A stretch of DNA of 21,353 nt from UHGV virus genome UHGV-0019869. One strand, written 5' to 3'. The DNA is from a virus. Positions 6,363 to 21,353 of this stretch are shown one piece after another (position 1 is the stretch's first letter; each line of letters starts with the position of its first letter). Made by a program: the position numbers and the translations under genes. The notes under the pieces were generated by a model. The model ran no database searches and was not told the origin of the DNA. It saw only the letters and a list, made by a program, of their open reading frames with translations.

Positions 6363-6590
6363 GTGAAGCGATGGTTCCTCATAATTACTGTTTTCGCGAT
6401 CATTTACACTATTTTCCCTGCATTAAAAGCACCAATGCAAATAATTTCGCTTGCAATAATTGCAATTGGTGCTTTCATTGCAGTAGCCGTACTTGTGTTT
6501 AAGGTTTTAAAGTTTTTAGTTTGGCTATCAAAAGATGATGGATGCAAAGTTCATCAAGAAAAAGAAGGCAAAATAACCAAAGTTGACTAA
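6363..6590 (+). CDS. Small hydrophobic (predicted two-helix membrane) protein, about 75 aa
   Basis: AGGAGG at 6352-6357 lies 5 nt before the GTG at 6363. The product WFLIITVFAIIYTIFPALKAPMQIISLAIIAIGAFIAVAVLVFKVLKFLVWL is strongly hydrophobic. The ORF track's alternative start at 6300 lacks an RBS. The stop overlaps the convergent gp16-like stop. Confidence 0.55.
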   Translation: MKRWFLIITVFAIIYTIFPALKAPMQIISLAIIAIGAFIAVAVLVFKVLKFLVWLSKDDGCKVHQEKEGKITKVD

Positions 6591-16513: not shown

Positions 16514-18712
16514 TTACTGCTGTGGTTGTTGCTGAGTTGATTTTTGCAGGATGCTGCTGATGTCCATGCGCTGCGCATGTCCCTGTGCCTGACTTTTCAG
16601 GACAAGCTCTGCATCAGCACGGGCATTGTCTCCTTGCTGTTGCTGGAACTGTCCGAGCAGTTTCAGAGCCTCGCGGATATCAGATTTCTGCTGGCTATCG
16701 GCAGATGCGAGGATTTTCACAACGTTTGCCGCTGCAACCTGAGCATCAGTCTGTGCCTGGAATGCTTTAACCTGAATGGCTGCCTGTTCGTTCTGCGCTT
16801 TCTGCAATTCAGCCTGACCAGCAAGAAGCTGACCTTGCGCTGCAACCATAGCCGGATCTGGCTGACTGGCCTGTTGTTGTTTCGCCTGTTCAACCATCTG
16901 CTGTTCTTCAGGCGTTCTCGGCTTGATAACGCCAGACAGAAGCAACTGATTGCGGTTGTATTCTTTCAGGTCGTCCATCCCTTCGCCGTCCATATTGTCG
17001 AGAATCATCGACGATACAAGGTCATGCTTCGGCGTTCCTGGCGGGATAAGTGCCAGCATGGAAAGTAACGACTTAACCGTTGCATCACGGCGAGTAGCGA
17101 ACGACTGACCAACATCGACAGTCACTTCATAGTTACCCTGCGAAAGGTCGTTAAGCGCGATAACCTGCCCTGTCTGACGGTCAATCACTTCACCAGTCAT
17201 CAGCGCCACGTCATCGCTGCCGTCCTCATTAACGATGCGCATTGGCGTATCGCTGCCATAGACCTCACGCGCCATAGAAAGCCACACAACGCCAGCGCGG
17301 CGCATGGATTTAGCCATGTTGTCCATGTAGATATAGGACTGCGTGTCCATCCTGTTAAAGATGCTATCAACGGTATCGGTGGCGACGTTGCTCGGCATGT
17401 TCTCAAGCTGCGACGCACCTGTAATTTGCTGAATAGCCGTTCCGGTGTACTGCAATAGCCCGGCAAGAGCTGGCGGCATTTGTGTCGGAGGCGTATAACT
17501 GCTGACCTGAGCCTGCGCAGTAATATCTCCGTTTTTGTTTTTCAGACTGACCATCGGCAGGAACGCCGGGCGCTTTTTGTTGCGCTCCGCCCAATGAGTG
17601 GCAAGAGGACCAGGAATCATGTCAACATCAACTACAGGAATGCCATCGCCGCCAGCCTGAGTGGCGTTATCTGCAATCATGGAAACCATCAGGTTCTCAA
17701 GACGCTGTGCATCCATCGCTTTTGCAGCGTGGCCTTCGATTCGCTCCTGATTATCAACAAATGAGCGACGCCCATATACCGGGATGAGAGGAATATGTTC
17801 ACCCGGAATACGCTTCGGTTCTTCCAGCCATTCAGCGCCAGACAGAAGACCGCAATAAACGCGGCGTTTCTTCACTGTCCGCTCGCCAATCAGTTCGAAT
17901 GCGCCATCGGTCAGCTCGTCGACAATATCTTTGATTTGATATTCATCATAGATTGCCGTTTCTCCGCTAACAGGGTTACGCCATGCTGTGAGCTTCACCT
18001 TCTCTATGCGAACTTCGTAGTAGCGACCAACATAGATAGCATCAGGAGTTGACCAGTCATATTGAGTGCCAGTGTCATCACGAGAAAGGCTTGCCGCGAT
18101 GGAATCAGGGTATTCAGCCTCGAACGCTTTAGGCGTCATGGAGAACATTTCCATAGCCCACATAGCATCAGAGCGGTCATATTGCTTGCTGTCCTGATCG
18201 AAGAAGACGCATGTCGCTGGGTCGTAAACAGGAAGAAGGCTGATGCGTCGCTGCTCGTTACTCGGATCCATTTCATCTTCGTAATCGGCACACATGCGGA
18301 AACAACCGAATCCGCCCGTTACAGCATCATCAAATGCGTTATCACACGCTTCGCCACCGGATGTTTCCTGATAATCAGCGCGGAATTTGCCGTTCATCTT
18401 TTCGGCTAACGCTTCCGATGCCTTATCGTCCTTCGGTCTGAATTTAACGCTGATGCGATTCTGTCGATACTCGCCAATGATGCGATCACATTCACGGGCA
18501 ATCTTATTCAGTTCAAAGCGCGGATAATGCTCAAACCTGCCTTCATCAAATGAGTAACCAGCGTTTGTGCTGCCTTCCCACTGTGCGCCGGACACCCTGA
18601 CGAAGCGTTGAGCTTCTATAATCTGCTCACGCATATCCTGCGTTGCTGACCAGGCATTATCAAAGTTGCACAGCACCTTGCGATGCCAGTCAGTCATCTT
18701 TTTTTCTGCCAT
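16514..18712 (-). CDS. Portal protein, P22 gp1-like, 732 aa
   Basis: The C-terminal region PEEQQMVEQAKQQQASQPDPAMVAAQGQLLAGQAELQKAQNEQ aligns with the P22 portal [42 protein letters not shown]. Length matches (about 725 aa in P22). Confidence 0.93.
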   Translation of the reverse strand: MAEKKMTDWHRKVLCNFDNAWSATQDMREQIIEAQRFVRVSGAQWEGSTNAGYSFDEGRFEHYPRFELNKIARECDRIIGEYRQNRISVKFRPKDDKASEALAEKMNGKFRADYQETSGGEACDNAFDDAVTGGFGCFRMCADYEDEMDPSNEQRRISLLPVYDPATCVFFDQDSKQYDRSDAMWAMEMFSMTPKAFEAEYPDSIAASLSRDDTGTQYDWSTPDAIYVGRYYEVRIEKVKLTAWRNPVSGETAIYDEYQIKDIVDELTDGAFELIGERTVKKRRVYCGLLSGAEWLEEPKRIPGEHIPLIPVYGRRSFVDNQERIEGHAAKAMDAQRLENLMVSMIADNATQAGGDGIPVVDVDMIPGPLATHWAERNKKRPAFLPMVSLKNKNGDITAQAQVSSYTPPTQMPPALAGLLQYTGTAIQQITGASQLENMPSNVATDTVDSIFNRMDTQSYIYMDNMAKSMRRAGVVWLSMAREVYGSDTPMRIVNEDGSDDVALMTGEVIDRQTGQVIALNDLSQGNYEVTVDVGQSFATRRDATVKSLLSMLALIPPGTPKHDLVSSMILDNMDGEGMDDLKEYNRNQLLLSGVIKPRTPEEQQMVEQAKQQQASQPDPAMVAAQGQLLAGQAELQKAQNEQAAIQVKAFQAQTDAQVAAANVVKILASADSQQKSDIREALKLLGQFQQQQGDNARADAELVLKSQAQGHAQRMDISSILQKSTQQQPQQ

Positions 18713-18713
18713 A

Positions 18714-20129
18714 TCAACCTACACCACAAGGAATTGAGTAACTGGAATAGTCGGGTTGCGCAGCCGACTCCGGGCAATGCATACACATCATCAACGCATC
18801 AGCCAGGTTAGGAGATGGAATACCGAGCTTCTGCTTCATTTCGACCTTAGTCATAAGCTCCAGCTTCCCGTTATTATTGAATTTGCGCTGAATCTGCGTC
18901 AGTTCTGCAAACAGCTTCTCCAGCATCTTCTCGCCTATCGCTTCTTTGTCGAAACTCAGCATGTCGTCGGGGTCTGCATACTCACCGTGGACAACCGCCC
19001 GATATGTCAGATACAGCCTGTCAGCCAGCGCGTAATAGAATTGCGCTCGCTTATTGCGGAACACATCGCCAATAGTGCGAACGTTGTCGCCCTGTACGAC
19101 TTCATCAGCCCATGCTCCGGCCTGATACGGTGCATCTTCATCGAATGGCGATTCGCTGCCCTTGAACATCGTGGCGGTGATTTTCTTGCCGGAGAACGCT
19201 TCCGTTGTCTGTCTGCGTAGCCCGGCACCAACACCATCACCATCCCACAGGTAATGGTCAGCGCCGTCTTCAATCGCCAGCGAAGTAGCCCAGTCAGCAC
19301 CCTCGTTGATGTCCATCAGCAGACCTTCGGCAATGCGCTTAACCACCGAACCGTGACGCGATGCATAACCTTTAGCATCTGGCCCTGTATCTGATGGGTC
19401 ATGCGCAGAGACAACAGCGCCTTTCGCTTTCCATCCGAGTTTCTTGTGCGCATCGGTTGCTGCTTCAAGCCATTCACGTTTGATGATTGCCATATCACTT
19501 GCGCTTACTGGCTCACCAAGCCAGATGTGACGATACAGTGTCGGATTTCTGCGTTTACACTCTTCCATCTCCAGACGGAGAACCTCAGGAAAGTGCGGGT
19601 TGTCGGTGTAGTTCACCGTCAGCAGGCAAATATCATCGGGAGGATTTACAACGAATCGCTGATAGGTATCGTCGAGTATGTTCTTCGGGTTAAAGCTCAC
19701 CCATATTTCAGAGAACGGCTTACGGATGGTTGGTATCAGGATATCCCATGATTCCTTCGTTACCGCTTCCGCTTCTTCCACCCAGCAGATATCAATGCCT
19801 TCGAGCGATTTAATCTTCGTCGGGTTGTTTTTGATGCCGTAGAACATGAATTCAGCATTCGTTCCGAGATGGCGAATCATGGAACGCTGAATTTCAAACT
19901 CAGCCGAATACCCTTCCCGCTCGATGGTGTCTTCAAGCAACCGGATTACCGAATCGCTGATACTGTTTTGCAGTTCACGAGCGCAGAGAATACGCACAGG
20001 CTGTCGGCGCGCCGCTTCAACAAGCAGCCTCGCAATTGCCCATGATTTACCGCTACCTCGACCGCCTTTGGCGACTTTGTAGCGATGCGCCTCAATGAAC
20101 GGTTCAAAGATAGGATTAATCGAGGTCAT
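18714..20129 (-). CDS. Terminase large subunit, 471 aa
   Basis: Walker A-like KVAKGGRGSGKSWAIARLL near the N-terminus, acidic nuclease-type motifs at the C-terminus, position immediately upstream of the portal. Resembles Sf6-type TerL rather than P22 gp2 in length. Confidence 0.93.
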   Translation of the reverse strand: MTSINPIFEPFIEAHRYKVAKGGRGSGKSWAIARLLVEAARRQPVRILCARELQNSISDSVIRLLEDTIEREGYSAEFEIQRSMIRHLGTNAEFMFYGIKNNPTKIKSLEGIDICWVEEAEAVTKESWDILIPTIRKPFSEIWVSFNPKNILDDTYQRFVVNPPDDICLLTVNYTDNPHFPEVLRLEMEECKRRNPTLYRHIWLGEPVSASDMAIIKREWLEAATDAHKKLGWKAKGAVVSAHDPSDTGPDAKGYASRHGSVVKRIAEGLLMDINEGADWATSLAIEDGADHYLWDGDGVGAGLRRQTTEAFSGKKITATMFKGSESPFDEDAPYQAGAWADEVVQGDNVRTIGDVFRNKRAQFYYALADRLYLTYRAVVHGEYADPDDMLSFDKEAIGEKMLEKLFAELTQIQRKFNNNGKLELMTKVEMKQKLGIPSPNLADALMMCMHCPESAAQPDYSSYSIPCGVG

Positions 20130-20653
20130 TTTCCAAATAGAGTGCTCATCGGTGATGTTTCAATCTGAATTGCGCCGCCGTCTTTGCCTGTTAATTCGTG
20201 AGAAGCTTGTTCTTTAAACGCCTGAACAGAAACATGCTTACCAAGAAGTTCGAGGTTTTTAACCTTATCAGGCCATTTGATTTTCTTCAGAAGTGCGGCG
20301 CTATCTGCGGATACCATCTCCACGACATCCATTCCTGATAGCGTTGTGCGCCATACCTTAGGCCAGTCTTTAATTGGCTTTAACTCGCCGTTTTGCAGGA
20401 GAATGTCGAGCACATCCATCTGGTCGATTTCAATAAGGCGATTAAGTACATATTCTGCGTTAATACCAACAAGATCATTGCGTTGCGCTTTCAGTTCGGC
20501 GATTCTTAACTTGATGTCATGTTTTGACAGGTTTTCGGATGCGGTACGGTTAGCTGTCTTTGCGCTGTACCCCGCCCGAATAGCCGCTTGCGTGGCGTTT
20601 AAATCGATGAGGTACTCGCGACAGAACATTTCTTGTTTGTCGGTGAGTGCCAT
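20126..20653 (-). CDS. Terminase small subunit (P27 / Terminase_2-like family), 175 aa
   Basis: The N-terminal LTDKQEMFCREYLIDLNATQAAIRAGYS motif is characteristic of this small-terminase family. ATGA overlap with the TerL start. Confidence 0.85.
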   Translation of the reverse strand: MALTDKQEMFCREYLIDLNATQAAIRAGYSAKTANRTASENLSKHDIKLRIAELKAQRNDLVGINAEYVLNRLIEIDQMDVLDILLQNGELKPIKDWPKVWRTTLSGMDVVEMVSADSAALLKKIKWPDKVKNLELLGKHVSVQAFKEQASHELTGKDGGAIQIETSPMSTLFGK

Positions 20654-20690
20654 TGCTTATTCTCTTTATTTAGTTAAACTATCTCCCTAC

Positions 20691-20706
20691 GAGCCCATAG
20701 GGAGTG
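20691..20706. repeat. Left copy of a 16-bp perfect inverted repeat (gagcccatagggagtg)
   Basis: Exact reverse complement of 20941-20956, read from the sequence. It also lies within a local palindrome ctccctacgagcccatagggag. Confidence 0.6.
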
Positions 20707-20825
20707 CCGGAAGCGATATCGTTCAAGTGGTGAAAAACATTACAGCAGTAGGACTTTTGTTTTATCCACTGATACCAAAAGCAGTAAAAGTTGTTAGCGA
20801 TATAGCCAAAAGCAAGGGGGTTGCC

Positions 20826-20969
20826 ATGAGGAAATATTCAGAAAAATTCATGAATACGGTAAAACGCTTAACCTCGAATACCGAAGAACTCACCATGGTC
20901 GATGTCGCTCTCTTCTACCTCGGGGGCTGGGTTACGTTCCCACTCCCTATGGGCTCAAATCCATCCTAA
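20826..20969 (+). CDS. Possible small ORF (47 aa) with a strong Shine-Dalgarno sequence, inside the inverted-repeat-bounded element
   Basis: AAGGGGG at 20814-20820 lies 5 nt before the ATG at 20826. The product has a hydrophobic C-terminus (LFYLGGWVTFPLPMG). It is on the strand opposite to the late operon. Speculative. Confidence 0.3.
   Translation: MRKYSEKFMNTVKRLTSNTEELTMVDVALFYLGGWVTFPLPMGSNPS
20941..20956. repeat. Right copy of the 16-bp perfect inverted repeat (cactccctatgggctc)
   Basis: Exact reverse complement of 20691-20706. Confidence 0.6.
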
Positions 20970-21249
20970 ACTCAATATAACCAATTCGTTTCTGCCTCAC
21001 ATATTGTGCTTTTACTCATTGTCGAGACCGCTCATTGAATGGCCTCTGCAATAACCGATGTCTTTCCATCAGTCCGCCACCACAAAGAATCTTTTTTGCC
21101 ATAAGGCTGGAGGTTCATCTTTCAGTGGCTGCCAGTGTTATTTCCCCGCTTACTGGCTTGGGTTGTTTCGTGGTACTGCCGTTAACTGGTGGCCCAGAAT
21201 AAATTCCGGTTTCATTATCAAGCCCACCCGTAAATGGGCTTTGTAATGG

Positions 21250-21353
21250 CTACTTCGCTTTTGCTTCCGCTCGCTTACGCCGGCGCTCTTCTTTCCTCTC
21301 GGCTTTTGCCATGTCCATGAATGCCTGCATGATCGAGTTCCGCATCATGTAGC
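21250..21353 (-). CDS. 3' end of an upstream late-operon gene (partial, runs off the window), product unknown
   Basis: The minus-strand frame is open from the window edge to the TAG at 21250-21252. The basic C-terminus reads ...MAKAERKEERRRKRAEAKAK. Too short for the ORF track. Confidence 0.4.
   Translation of the reverse strand, partial: YMMRNSIMQAFMDMAKAERKEERRRKRAEAKAK

Follow-up and report, generated by a model that had tools for sequence, protein, structure and literature searches.

What is a perfect inverted repeat doing directly upstream of the small terminase gene of a prophage? The question is raised by UHGV virus genome UHGV-0019869, of which a stretch of 21,353 nt (the window) was analysed. 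The window corresponds to the late region of a P22-like lambdoid prophage, with the late genes on the - strand, and a gap of 596 bp separates the start of terS, the small terminase gene (20653), from the stop codon of the upstream hkbL-like gene (21250). Inside this gap, GAGCCCATAGGGAGTG occupies 20691-20706 and recurs as its exact reverse complement at 20941-20956; the two arms are complementary at 16 of 16 positions, with 234 nt between them. A preliminary description of the locus had reported this repeat at the same coordinates, an apparently non-coding gap of about 600 bp in which, as found here, the late strand contains no open reading frame (ORF) longer than 44 amino acids (aa), and a 47-aa ORF on the opposite strand preceded by a Shine-Dalgarno (SD) sequence, which is present at 20826-20969 (+) as AAGGGGG-N5-ATG. 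The same description proposed that the element could be a miniature inverted-repeat transposable element (MITE), an invertible segment, part of a packaging-recognition region or a long regulatory RNA structure.

The comparison of eight natural variants indicates that the two arms of the repeat form the stem that closes a folded + strand RNA. On balance, the locus probably represents an accessory small gene (a moron) that is transcribed independently of, and antisense to, the late operon and yields an mRNA in which an interrupted 38-bp helix clamps the two ends together. The repeat itself is unique within the window: a search for the 16-mer with up to three mismatches returns just these two sites in 21.3 kb, shuffled sequences contain 0.04 matches on average (none of 100 shuffles reaches two), and no other perfect inverted repeat of at least 13 nt with arms within 1 kb of each other exists in the entire window.

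Seven diverged lineages of the element, from Citrobacter-type and metagenomic prophages, were recovered by protein and DNA-pattern searches and aligned with the window; their BLASTN identity to the window is approximately 77-88% over the aligned stretches. L083, L084, L085 and L104 derive from Logan assemblies, L090 from IMG/VR, and L094 and L095 from ENA, while L091 is almost identical to L084. In the RNAalifold consensus of the + strand, the stem formed by the two arms (H1) is lengthened by three pairs (20709-20711 with 20938-20940), and a second long-range helix (H2) is added (20712-20733 with 20890-20909). Both helices are also present in the minimum free energy and centroid folds of the window and of L084 when these are folded singly (z = -3.45 and -3.97, respectively). 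The structural elements of this RNA are:

20691-20711, + strand: 5' strand of H1, made up of the left arm (20691-20706), a 2-nt bulge and GGA (20709-20711), located at or no more than about 4 nt from the predicted transcript start.
20938-20956, + strand: 3' strand of H1, made up of UCC (20938-20940) and the right arm (20941-20956), encoding ...PLPMGS of the ORF.
20712-20733, + strand: 5' strand of H2, AGCGAUAUCG.UCA..UGGUGA, containing an invariant in-frame GTG at 20730.
20890-20909, + strand: 3' strand of H2, UCACCA..UGG.CGAUGUCGCU, within ORF codons 22-28, from the RNAalifold consensus.
20919-20931, + strand: hairpin CUCGG-NNN-CUGGG, small and conserved, located after the 3' strand of H2 and before that of H1; in L084 and L090 it scores as weakly terminator-like.
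20683-20704, + strand: hairpin CTCCCTA-N8-TAGGGAG of the window lineage, read from the sequence, which could compete with the left arm.

The 5' half of the last hairpin is missing from all diverged relatives, where a 3-4-nt indel and substitutions are found; it therefore lies outside the conserved design.

The pairing of H1 and H2 is retained in spite of sequence change. All cells of the 19 pairs of H1 (16+3) are paired, and four of these pairs vary, including the combinations C-G/U-G/U-A (20694/20953), G-C/A-U/G-U (20693/20954) and C-G/U-A (20695/20952). In H2, also of 19 pairs, nine pairs vary on one side only and all of them are retained as G·U, with a single broken cell. Counted across the eight sequences, the 38 pairs give 304 cells, of which 303 (99.7%) hold standard pairs; 13 pairs are variable, and sliding the partners by one to three columns lowers the pairing to 33-47%. 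The first and last bases of the arms illustrate these changes:

Window: left GAGCCC..., right ...GGGCTC (reference).
L083: left GAGTCC..., right ...GGACTT (C-G to U-A, and G-C to G·U).
L085: left GAATTC..., right ...GAGTTC (G-C to A-U, C-G to U·G, and C-G to U-A).
L094: left GAGTCC..., right ...GGGTTC (two wobbles).
L104: left GAGTCC..., right ...GGGCTT (two wobbles).

From these counts, about 13 single changes have been kept versus one that breaks a pair (estimated p ~1e-3 even if all changes were transitions), and conservation of the pairing is therefore unlikely without selection. The changes also favour one strand for the structure. One-sided changes all give G·U or U·G in the + strand RNA (11 pairs), and none gives the A·C-equivalent that would be G·U on the - strand (sign test ~0.001); read as - strand RNA, only 94.7% of the cells of H1 and 90.2% of those of H2 pair.

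The clamp encloses a small gene, the features of which are:

20826-20969, + strand: small ORF of 47 aa, MRKYSEKFMNTVKRLTSNTEELTMVDVALFYLGGWVTFPLPMGSNPS, from ATG at 20826 to TAA at 20967.
20814-20820 and 20826-20828, + strand: SD sequence AAGGGGG and ATG, separated by a 5-nt spacer; GCAAGGGGG and CCATGA are invariant in all eight lineages.
20730-20825, + strand: candidate N-terminal extension from the invariant GTG at 20730, giving a 79-aa product; free of stops in the eight lineages.

In the Citrobacter-type relatives the ORF comprises 62 aa. The conserved core consists of residues 1-42 and ends with ...FPLPM, encoded by the right arm, and the tails beyond the arm differ in length (window and L104, 5 aa; Citrobacter type, 20 aa; L085, 26 aa). 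The ratio of nonsynonymous to synonymous variation (pN/pS) is 0.25 in the ORF frame versus 0.93 and 1.29 in the other sense frames, and variable columns in codons 10-38 are distributed 7/2/13 over the three codon positions; a coding-type substitution pattern is thus shown at the level of sequence comparison. The + strand frame is open far upstream of the ATG, and the Prokaryotic Genome Annotation Pipeline (PGAP) calls a 108-aa hypothetical protein (WP_024244326.1) corresponding to window 20643-20969. Between 20707 and 20795, variable columns in the ORF frame number 9/2/14 by codon position (p ~0.013) with a pN/pS of 0.34, and a 79-aa product starting at GTG 20730 is possible, although no SD sequence precedes this GTG, which is located within H2. 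Beyond this region, four of the eight lineages have a stop in the -10 box that interrupts the frame, and the 108-160-aa gene calls of annotation pipelines are therefore over-extensions into the antisense of terS.

The ORF product matches phrog_36259, annotated as of unknown function, and has no credible match in Pfam, NCBIfam or PADLOC. When 1.84 billion protein representatives were searched with a profile, only the family itself came up, together with weak, repeated matches to peptidoglycan (PG)-binding-like amidase repeats. The latter involve the upstream in-frame peptide GSDIVQVVKNITAVGLLFYPLIP (20703-20775, + frame), with a summed profile match of E 7e-11 over six repeats against the PG-binding-like units of an 810-aa amidase. 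This similarity is without Pfam confirmation, probably reflects chance amplified by the repeats, and was discarded.

A predicted σ70-type promoter could serve this gene:

20653-20680, + strand: -35 element TTGCTT (20653-20658), which shares one base with the start codon of terS, then a 16-nt spacer, and -10 element TAAACT (20675-20680).

The scan tool called TTGATA/TTGCTA-16-TAAACT/TAAAAT in L083, L084 and L090, and a looser scan detected the site in six of the eight aligned sequences; in six of eight lineages, the promoter-like site ends 6-10 nt before the left arm. The start predicted about 7 nt after the -10 element lies some 3-4 nt ahead of the left arm in the window; in the relatives it coincides with the arm's first base. 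In L085, the upstream promoter region is present too, and more diverged, as judged from a comparison of L084 with L085.

The distribution of the element shows how it is inherited. The repeat lies in a 363-bp segment (20654-21016) that has no match among 50,697 phage records by near or distant BLASTN, and TBLASTN likewise returned none for the segment or the ORF. Near and distant searches of 5,426 complete E. coli genomes found it in two, as a single copy at the same place in both; the search for extra genomic copies suggested by the preliminary description thus yielded one copy in each of these two genomes and no second copy in either. A comparison with related prophages was also suggested there: all 80 IMG/VR loci with a terS 75-99% identical to that of the window lack the cassette. 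Their similarity to the window begins at the terS ATG or at most 16 nt upstream of it, and the slot between the lambdoid block and terS is filled with unrelated inserts of approximately 50-1000 bp. The repeat is therefore part of a rare insert in a recognised mosaic slot. Among these loci, at least 11 IMG/VR contigs (L003-L013) encode a terS 97-99% identical at the protein level and carry unrelated DNA from the base preceding the ATG. By this comparison, the cassette is shown to be dispensable for phages with the same terminase. Analogous long-range inverted repeats were sought in the inserts that other phages carry in this slot, and only two unrelated 13-mers were found, about the chance level; the long-range repeat is therefore no general class of that slot.

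Judged by cluster names, 29 contigs of Citrobacter freundii carry the 62-aa form, and the E. coli contigs with the window form number well over 100; every one of these entries is annotated as 'hypothetical protein'. Peptide patterns and a 23-base DNA pattern found nothing in the species-representative genomes (185,579 species), two DNA patterns in IMG/VR returned the same six contigs as the protein search and nothing further, and a metagenome DNA pattern returned two contigs of the E. coli type. In the collections searched, the small ORF is thus confined to a small number of prophages of E. coli and Citrobacter. Each locus among all 105 collected sequences holds one copy, and nhmmer with the eight-sequence profile detected no remote or second copies.

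The boundaries of the conserved unit differ on its two sides. On the left, the homology of every lineage continues past the arm; it takes in the promoter region as well as a terS 5' piece, which measures 44 nt in L084, about 110 nt in L094/L095 and 250 nt in L083/L087, and which is retained even where the functional terS differs or is about 1 kb distant. In L084, the cassette stands beside a different terS of 216 aa. In L087/L088/L092 (2584-2836) and L083 (2872-3125), a duplicated 250-nt terS 5' piece is joined to the cassette; its start corresponds to window 20400-20403 in both lineages, so that it looks like a common old recombination joint inside terS, and in L087 about 1 kb of small genes lies between the duplicated piece and the intact terS. 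On the right, homology to the diverged copies stops 2-25 nt past the arm. Five lineages have a common neighbour there, a 68-aa late-strand gene, while the window, L085 and L104 show three other right flanks with independent junctions 2-25 nt past the arm. Citrobacter-type prophages carry a second + strand small ORF just left of the cassette (58 aa, lysine/glycine-rich, stress-protein-like; L084 2586-2762, L085 956-1132), and the slot can therefore take more than one gene oriented against the late operon.

These data bear on the proposals that the repeats are protein-binding termini of a DNA element, be it a MITE-like transposon, an invertible segment or a pac/terminase site. A perfect 16-bp inverted repeat around about 234 bp, in a mosaic slot beside terS, is what such an element would show, and terminal inverted repeats are indeed present at 16 of 16 positions. 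The variants of the arms, however, are strand-specific and of the G·U type, which is unexpected for transposase-binding ends and fits RNA rather than a protein-binding site. The boundaries do not coincide with the repeat ends, since the left one never lies at the arm and the right one lies beyond it. The element is single-copy, is always joined to the terS 5' piece instead of occurring at unrelated loci, and is bordered by ...CCCTAC|arm and arm|AAATCC..., without a direct repeat that would represent a target-site duplication. Neither a transposase nor an invertase or recombinase gene adjoins it; it is flanked by terS and by non-coding lambdoid DNA that contains gene remnants, and no ORF longer than 62 aa exists within 600 bp to the right. 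Orientation is always the same at the level of assembled sequence, with colinearity to the window in each of the eight lineages and in the 12 E. coli-type assemblies examined. Single copy number, colinearity, the left boundary and the lack of a target-site duplication therefore lead to rejection of the MITE and the inversion proposals. The packaging-site proposal is removed by the 97-99% identical terminases without the segment, and co-inheritance with a cognate terS is absent in both directions (L003-L013 without cassette, a different terS in L084). An origin of the repeat in a DNA-level element, already largely refuted, is barely credible. It is very improbable, too, that the structure belongs to the late-operon mRNA, where it would form an RNase III site or a stability or translation element that tunes terminase synthesis. 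In the window itself the arms are perfect Watson-Crick complements, folding of the - strand RNA is nearly as favourable (-83.9 kcal/mol, z -3.7), and the structure would lie about 35 nt before the terS start in the late transcript. Yet all 11 wobble-type variants would be A·C mismatches in that RNA, phages with 97-99% identical terS lack the element, and in L083, L084, L087 and L094 the cassette is not adjacent to the functional terS, as a terS remnant of 44-250 nt and other genes intervene. Of the earlier proposal of a long regulatory RNA structure, the conserved long fold thus stands, as a structure of the small-ORF transcript and not of the late-operon leader.

Two further explanations concern the + strand RNA itself. 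That the folded RNA of about 270 nt is the product, acting as decoy, sponge or antisense regulator of the late mRNA leader, with the ORF incidental, is rather unlikely. The conserved unit ends at the stem base rather than at the stop codon and the ORF tails vary, the fold is far more stable than that of shuffled sequence, and the sar RNA in the window demonstrates antisense RNAs in this phage type; all of this would suit a non-coding RNA. Against it stand the invariant SD and ATG, the lack of an Rfam family match, and third-position variation with a pN/pS of 0.25 in exactly the ORF frame, which is hard to obtain from RNA structure alone. Specifically, the cassette has no Rfam match with E <=10 on either strand (20000-21353 scanned), and scans of the window, L083 and L084 at gathering level gave only sar, which lies in another part of the window. 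The cassette RNA resembles P22 sar RNA in being antisense to late-region transcription in a P22-like phage, and differs from it in length and in its conserved ORF, as sar is a 68-nt non-coding antisense RNA against ant.

The other explanation is a module similar to type I toxin-antitoxin systems, in which a clamped, translationally restrained mRNA encodes a small toxic membrane-active peptide and is neutralised or triggered by antisense RNA, either a small RNA (sRNA) or the late transcript. Closure of an mRNA end to end is best known from type I toxin mRNAs, and the 5'-3' long-distance interaction in the mRNA of hok/sok is an example. The cassette shares with hok/sok and aapA1 a small ORF within an extensively folded mRNA, ends that pair (here in silico), selection on the pairing and carriage on a mobile element, here a prophage in which it is antisense to a strongly regulated operon. 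Its ORF of 47-62 aa ends in a stretch of borderline hydrophobicity. A conserved long-distance interaction of the 5' end with the 3' end has been described for the aapA1 mRNA of the aapA1/isoA1 type I system (PMC8167048). In one consensus fold of the cassette RNA, moreover, the SD is paired with the upstream CCUUUUGUU. This internal pairing is weak and G·U-rich, however, and although present in the eight-sequence consensus it is missing from the seven-sequence consensus. The SD forms no part of H1 or H2 and lies about 100 nt from either strand of the end-to-end helix. Even a scan with relaxed thresholds revealed no conserved - strand promoter-like site in the cassette, and hence there is no sign of a cis-antisense sRNA; although antisense, the late transcript does not amount to a dedicated antitoxin. 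The mean hydrophobicity of the peptide (Kyte-Doolittle, 19 residues, 1.45-1.66) is well below that of Hok-type toxins, and the searches of Rfam, Pfam and PADLOC gave no family match. The unheld SD, the lack of an antisense promoter and the weak hydrophobicity are therefore the reasons why the cassette is not filed as a type I system, an assignment that is unlikely. A related idea, that an end-clamped, long-lived mRNA is stored in the lysogen and unlocked or destroyed by complementary late-operon antisense RNA, as an RNA switch similar to type I toxins or abortive infection, is quite speculative and less probable. Convergent late transcription from the induced prophage or from a related superinfecting phage would then couple peptide output to the onset of DNA packaging.

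The alternative that appears best supported is the end-clamped moron mRNA. In this gene, the order on the + strand would be promoter, a start of transcription on the left arm or immediately ahead of it, some 135 nt of leader, SD and ATG, ORF, and the right arm in the last conserved codons, with the inverted repeat as the terminal stem of an RNA of about 270 nt. The first 45 nt or so of the RNA would pair with two stretches near its 3' end (H1, 16+3 bp; H2, 19 bp), and the resulting 38-bp clamp would enclose the SD, the start codon and most of the ORF. The cassette, lodged in the variable slot between the lysis-distal genes and terS of a P22-like prophage and pointing against the late operon, may be transcribed from the prophage while the late operon is silent. 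A paired 5' end hinders 5'-end-dependent RNase E, pairing in the 3' region stops 3' exonucleases, and duplexes longer than 20 bp are potential substrates of RNase III. The end-to-end duplex may therefore shield both ends from these nucleases and/or serve as an RNase III target, and the repeat likely sets the stability and translatability of the small-protein mRNA. The product would be a small protein expressed from the prophage, for example one involved in exclusion or host modulation. The arms also resemble other sequences of translation: the left arm (AUAGGGAGUG) is similar to an extended SD sequence, and the right arm (CACUCCCUAU) to the 3' end of 16S rRNA (anti-SD). Pairing of CUCCCU in the right arm with the SD AAGGGGG of the ORF is an alternative that could in principle form; it was not seen in folds of truncated RNAs.

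Assignment to the morons, a concept that has been used for P22-like phages (PMC2629481), rests on the behaviour of the cassette among phages. It is present or absent among close phages at the same map position, and it behaves as a moron because it is missing from the 80 terS-related loci, has no match in the phage collection, occurs in two of 5,426 E. coli genomes and accompanies a different terS in L084. As in morons such as λ bor, the cassette is an extra gene between lysis-distal and packaging genes, has a predicted promoter-like site of its own, points against the late operon and could be expressed from the prophage. Downstream of Rz, the λ bor gene occupies the corresponding place; it has the opposite orientation, and its expression takes place in the prophage. 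In contrast to bor, the cassette is much smaller, its own terminator was not found, and its mRNA has the conserved 38-bp end-to-end helix; its sequence is similar neither to bor nor to any named family. Stems formed by distant 5' and 3' flanks and processed by RNase III are known from rRNA precursors and T7 early mRNAs. The cassette is similar to these in that two distant segments form a long, near-perfect duplex of more than 20 bp around a functional RNA, a resemblance that is structural only; the enclosed RNA would here be a small mRNA. The cassette can be regarded as a new and rare representative of prophage morons or small genes, one that has a heavily structured mRNA and no Rfam family.

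Several observations weigh against this assignment. In a shuffle control, 9-12 of 500 shuffles scored as high as the observed alignment, which is suggestive rather than decisive; the covariation derives from eight lineages only, with true double changes in two or three pairs, and H2 initially came from structure prediction on the + strand, a procedure biased towards G·U pairs of that strand. The -35 element of the window matches the consensus at three of six positions, below the scan threshold, and the promoter was not called there; promoter function at 20653-20680 is presumed. No intrinsic terminator was detected by scanning after the right arm, the nearest hairpins being about 190-290 nt downstream. 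The stop codon of the ORF lies outside the conserved unit and the C-terminal tails vary, which weakens the case for the protein as the selected product. The best 19-residue Kyte-Doolittle mean marks the C-terminal hydrophobic stretch as a borderline membrane helix, and the AlphaFold2 model of the 79-aa version is all-helical with a predicted local distance difference test (pLDDT) score of 56, a low confidence too poor for a fold search.

The surroundings of the cassette are those of a mosaic lambdoid late region:

20126-20653, - strand: small terminase gene terS (175 aa, Terminase_2 type; 'terminase small subunit' in PGAP), neighbour of the cassette and outside it.
18714-20129, - strand: large terminase.
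16514-18712, - strand: portal.
20957-21016, no strand assigned: flank specific to the window lineage, 60 bp between the cassette and the lambdoid block, containing the stop codon of the 47-aa ORF.

PGAP assigns the same names to the late genes of an identical E. coli prophage, and the terS of the relatives carries PF03592. According to BLAST against the 50,697 phage records, the gap falls into two parts, 20654-21016 and 21017-21353. The second is 92-97% identical in about 190 lambdoid phages, including HK620, HK97, HK022, ST64T and L, with all matches ending at 21016-21018, and contains the end of the hkbL-like gene and a hairpin. The flank 20957-21016 has no match in the phage collection, and the relatives diverge from the window inside it. 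A 28-aa ORF at 21016-21102 (-) represents the first codons of a gene similar to orf118 of ST64T/phage L, severed exactly at the mosaic junction 21017. The hairpin, AAGCCCA-N8-TGGGCTT, follows the hkbL-like gene at 21219-21243, and a piece of about 37 nt containing it reappears alone at other positions (L084 4692-4728, L090 2347-2384, L083 2257-2295), as if it were a portable terminator or junction sequence. A sub-threshold Rfam match to Proteo-phage-1 in the same block (21127-21162, -; 16.8 bits vs a gathering value of 42, E 4.8, model ends only) is probably noise. Elsewhere in the window, the sar RNA (Rfam RF00262; 4144-4210, +; 87.7 bits, E 2e-17) indicates a P22-type immunity I region, and an imperfect 29-nt inverted repeat at 6418-6483 (79% complementary, 8-nt loop) between convergent ORFs is likely a bidirectional terminator.

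For annotation, the 'hypothetical proteins' of 108-160 aa called at this position should be read as over-extended, and the cassette offers a handle on the phrog_36259 family of phage proteins. The element is rare, and its wider impact would be modest unless the product has a toxin or exclusion role; it would gain interest if late transcription acts as its antisense partner. If the proposed organisation is correct, the cassette would represent a compact phage accessory gene with an mRNA closed end to end by a selected duplex, located antisense to the late operon and directly before the packaging genes. About 330 bp and eight natural variants with compensatory changes would then constitute a small test case for the contribution of end-to-end pairing to the lifetime and translation of enterobacterial mRNAs.

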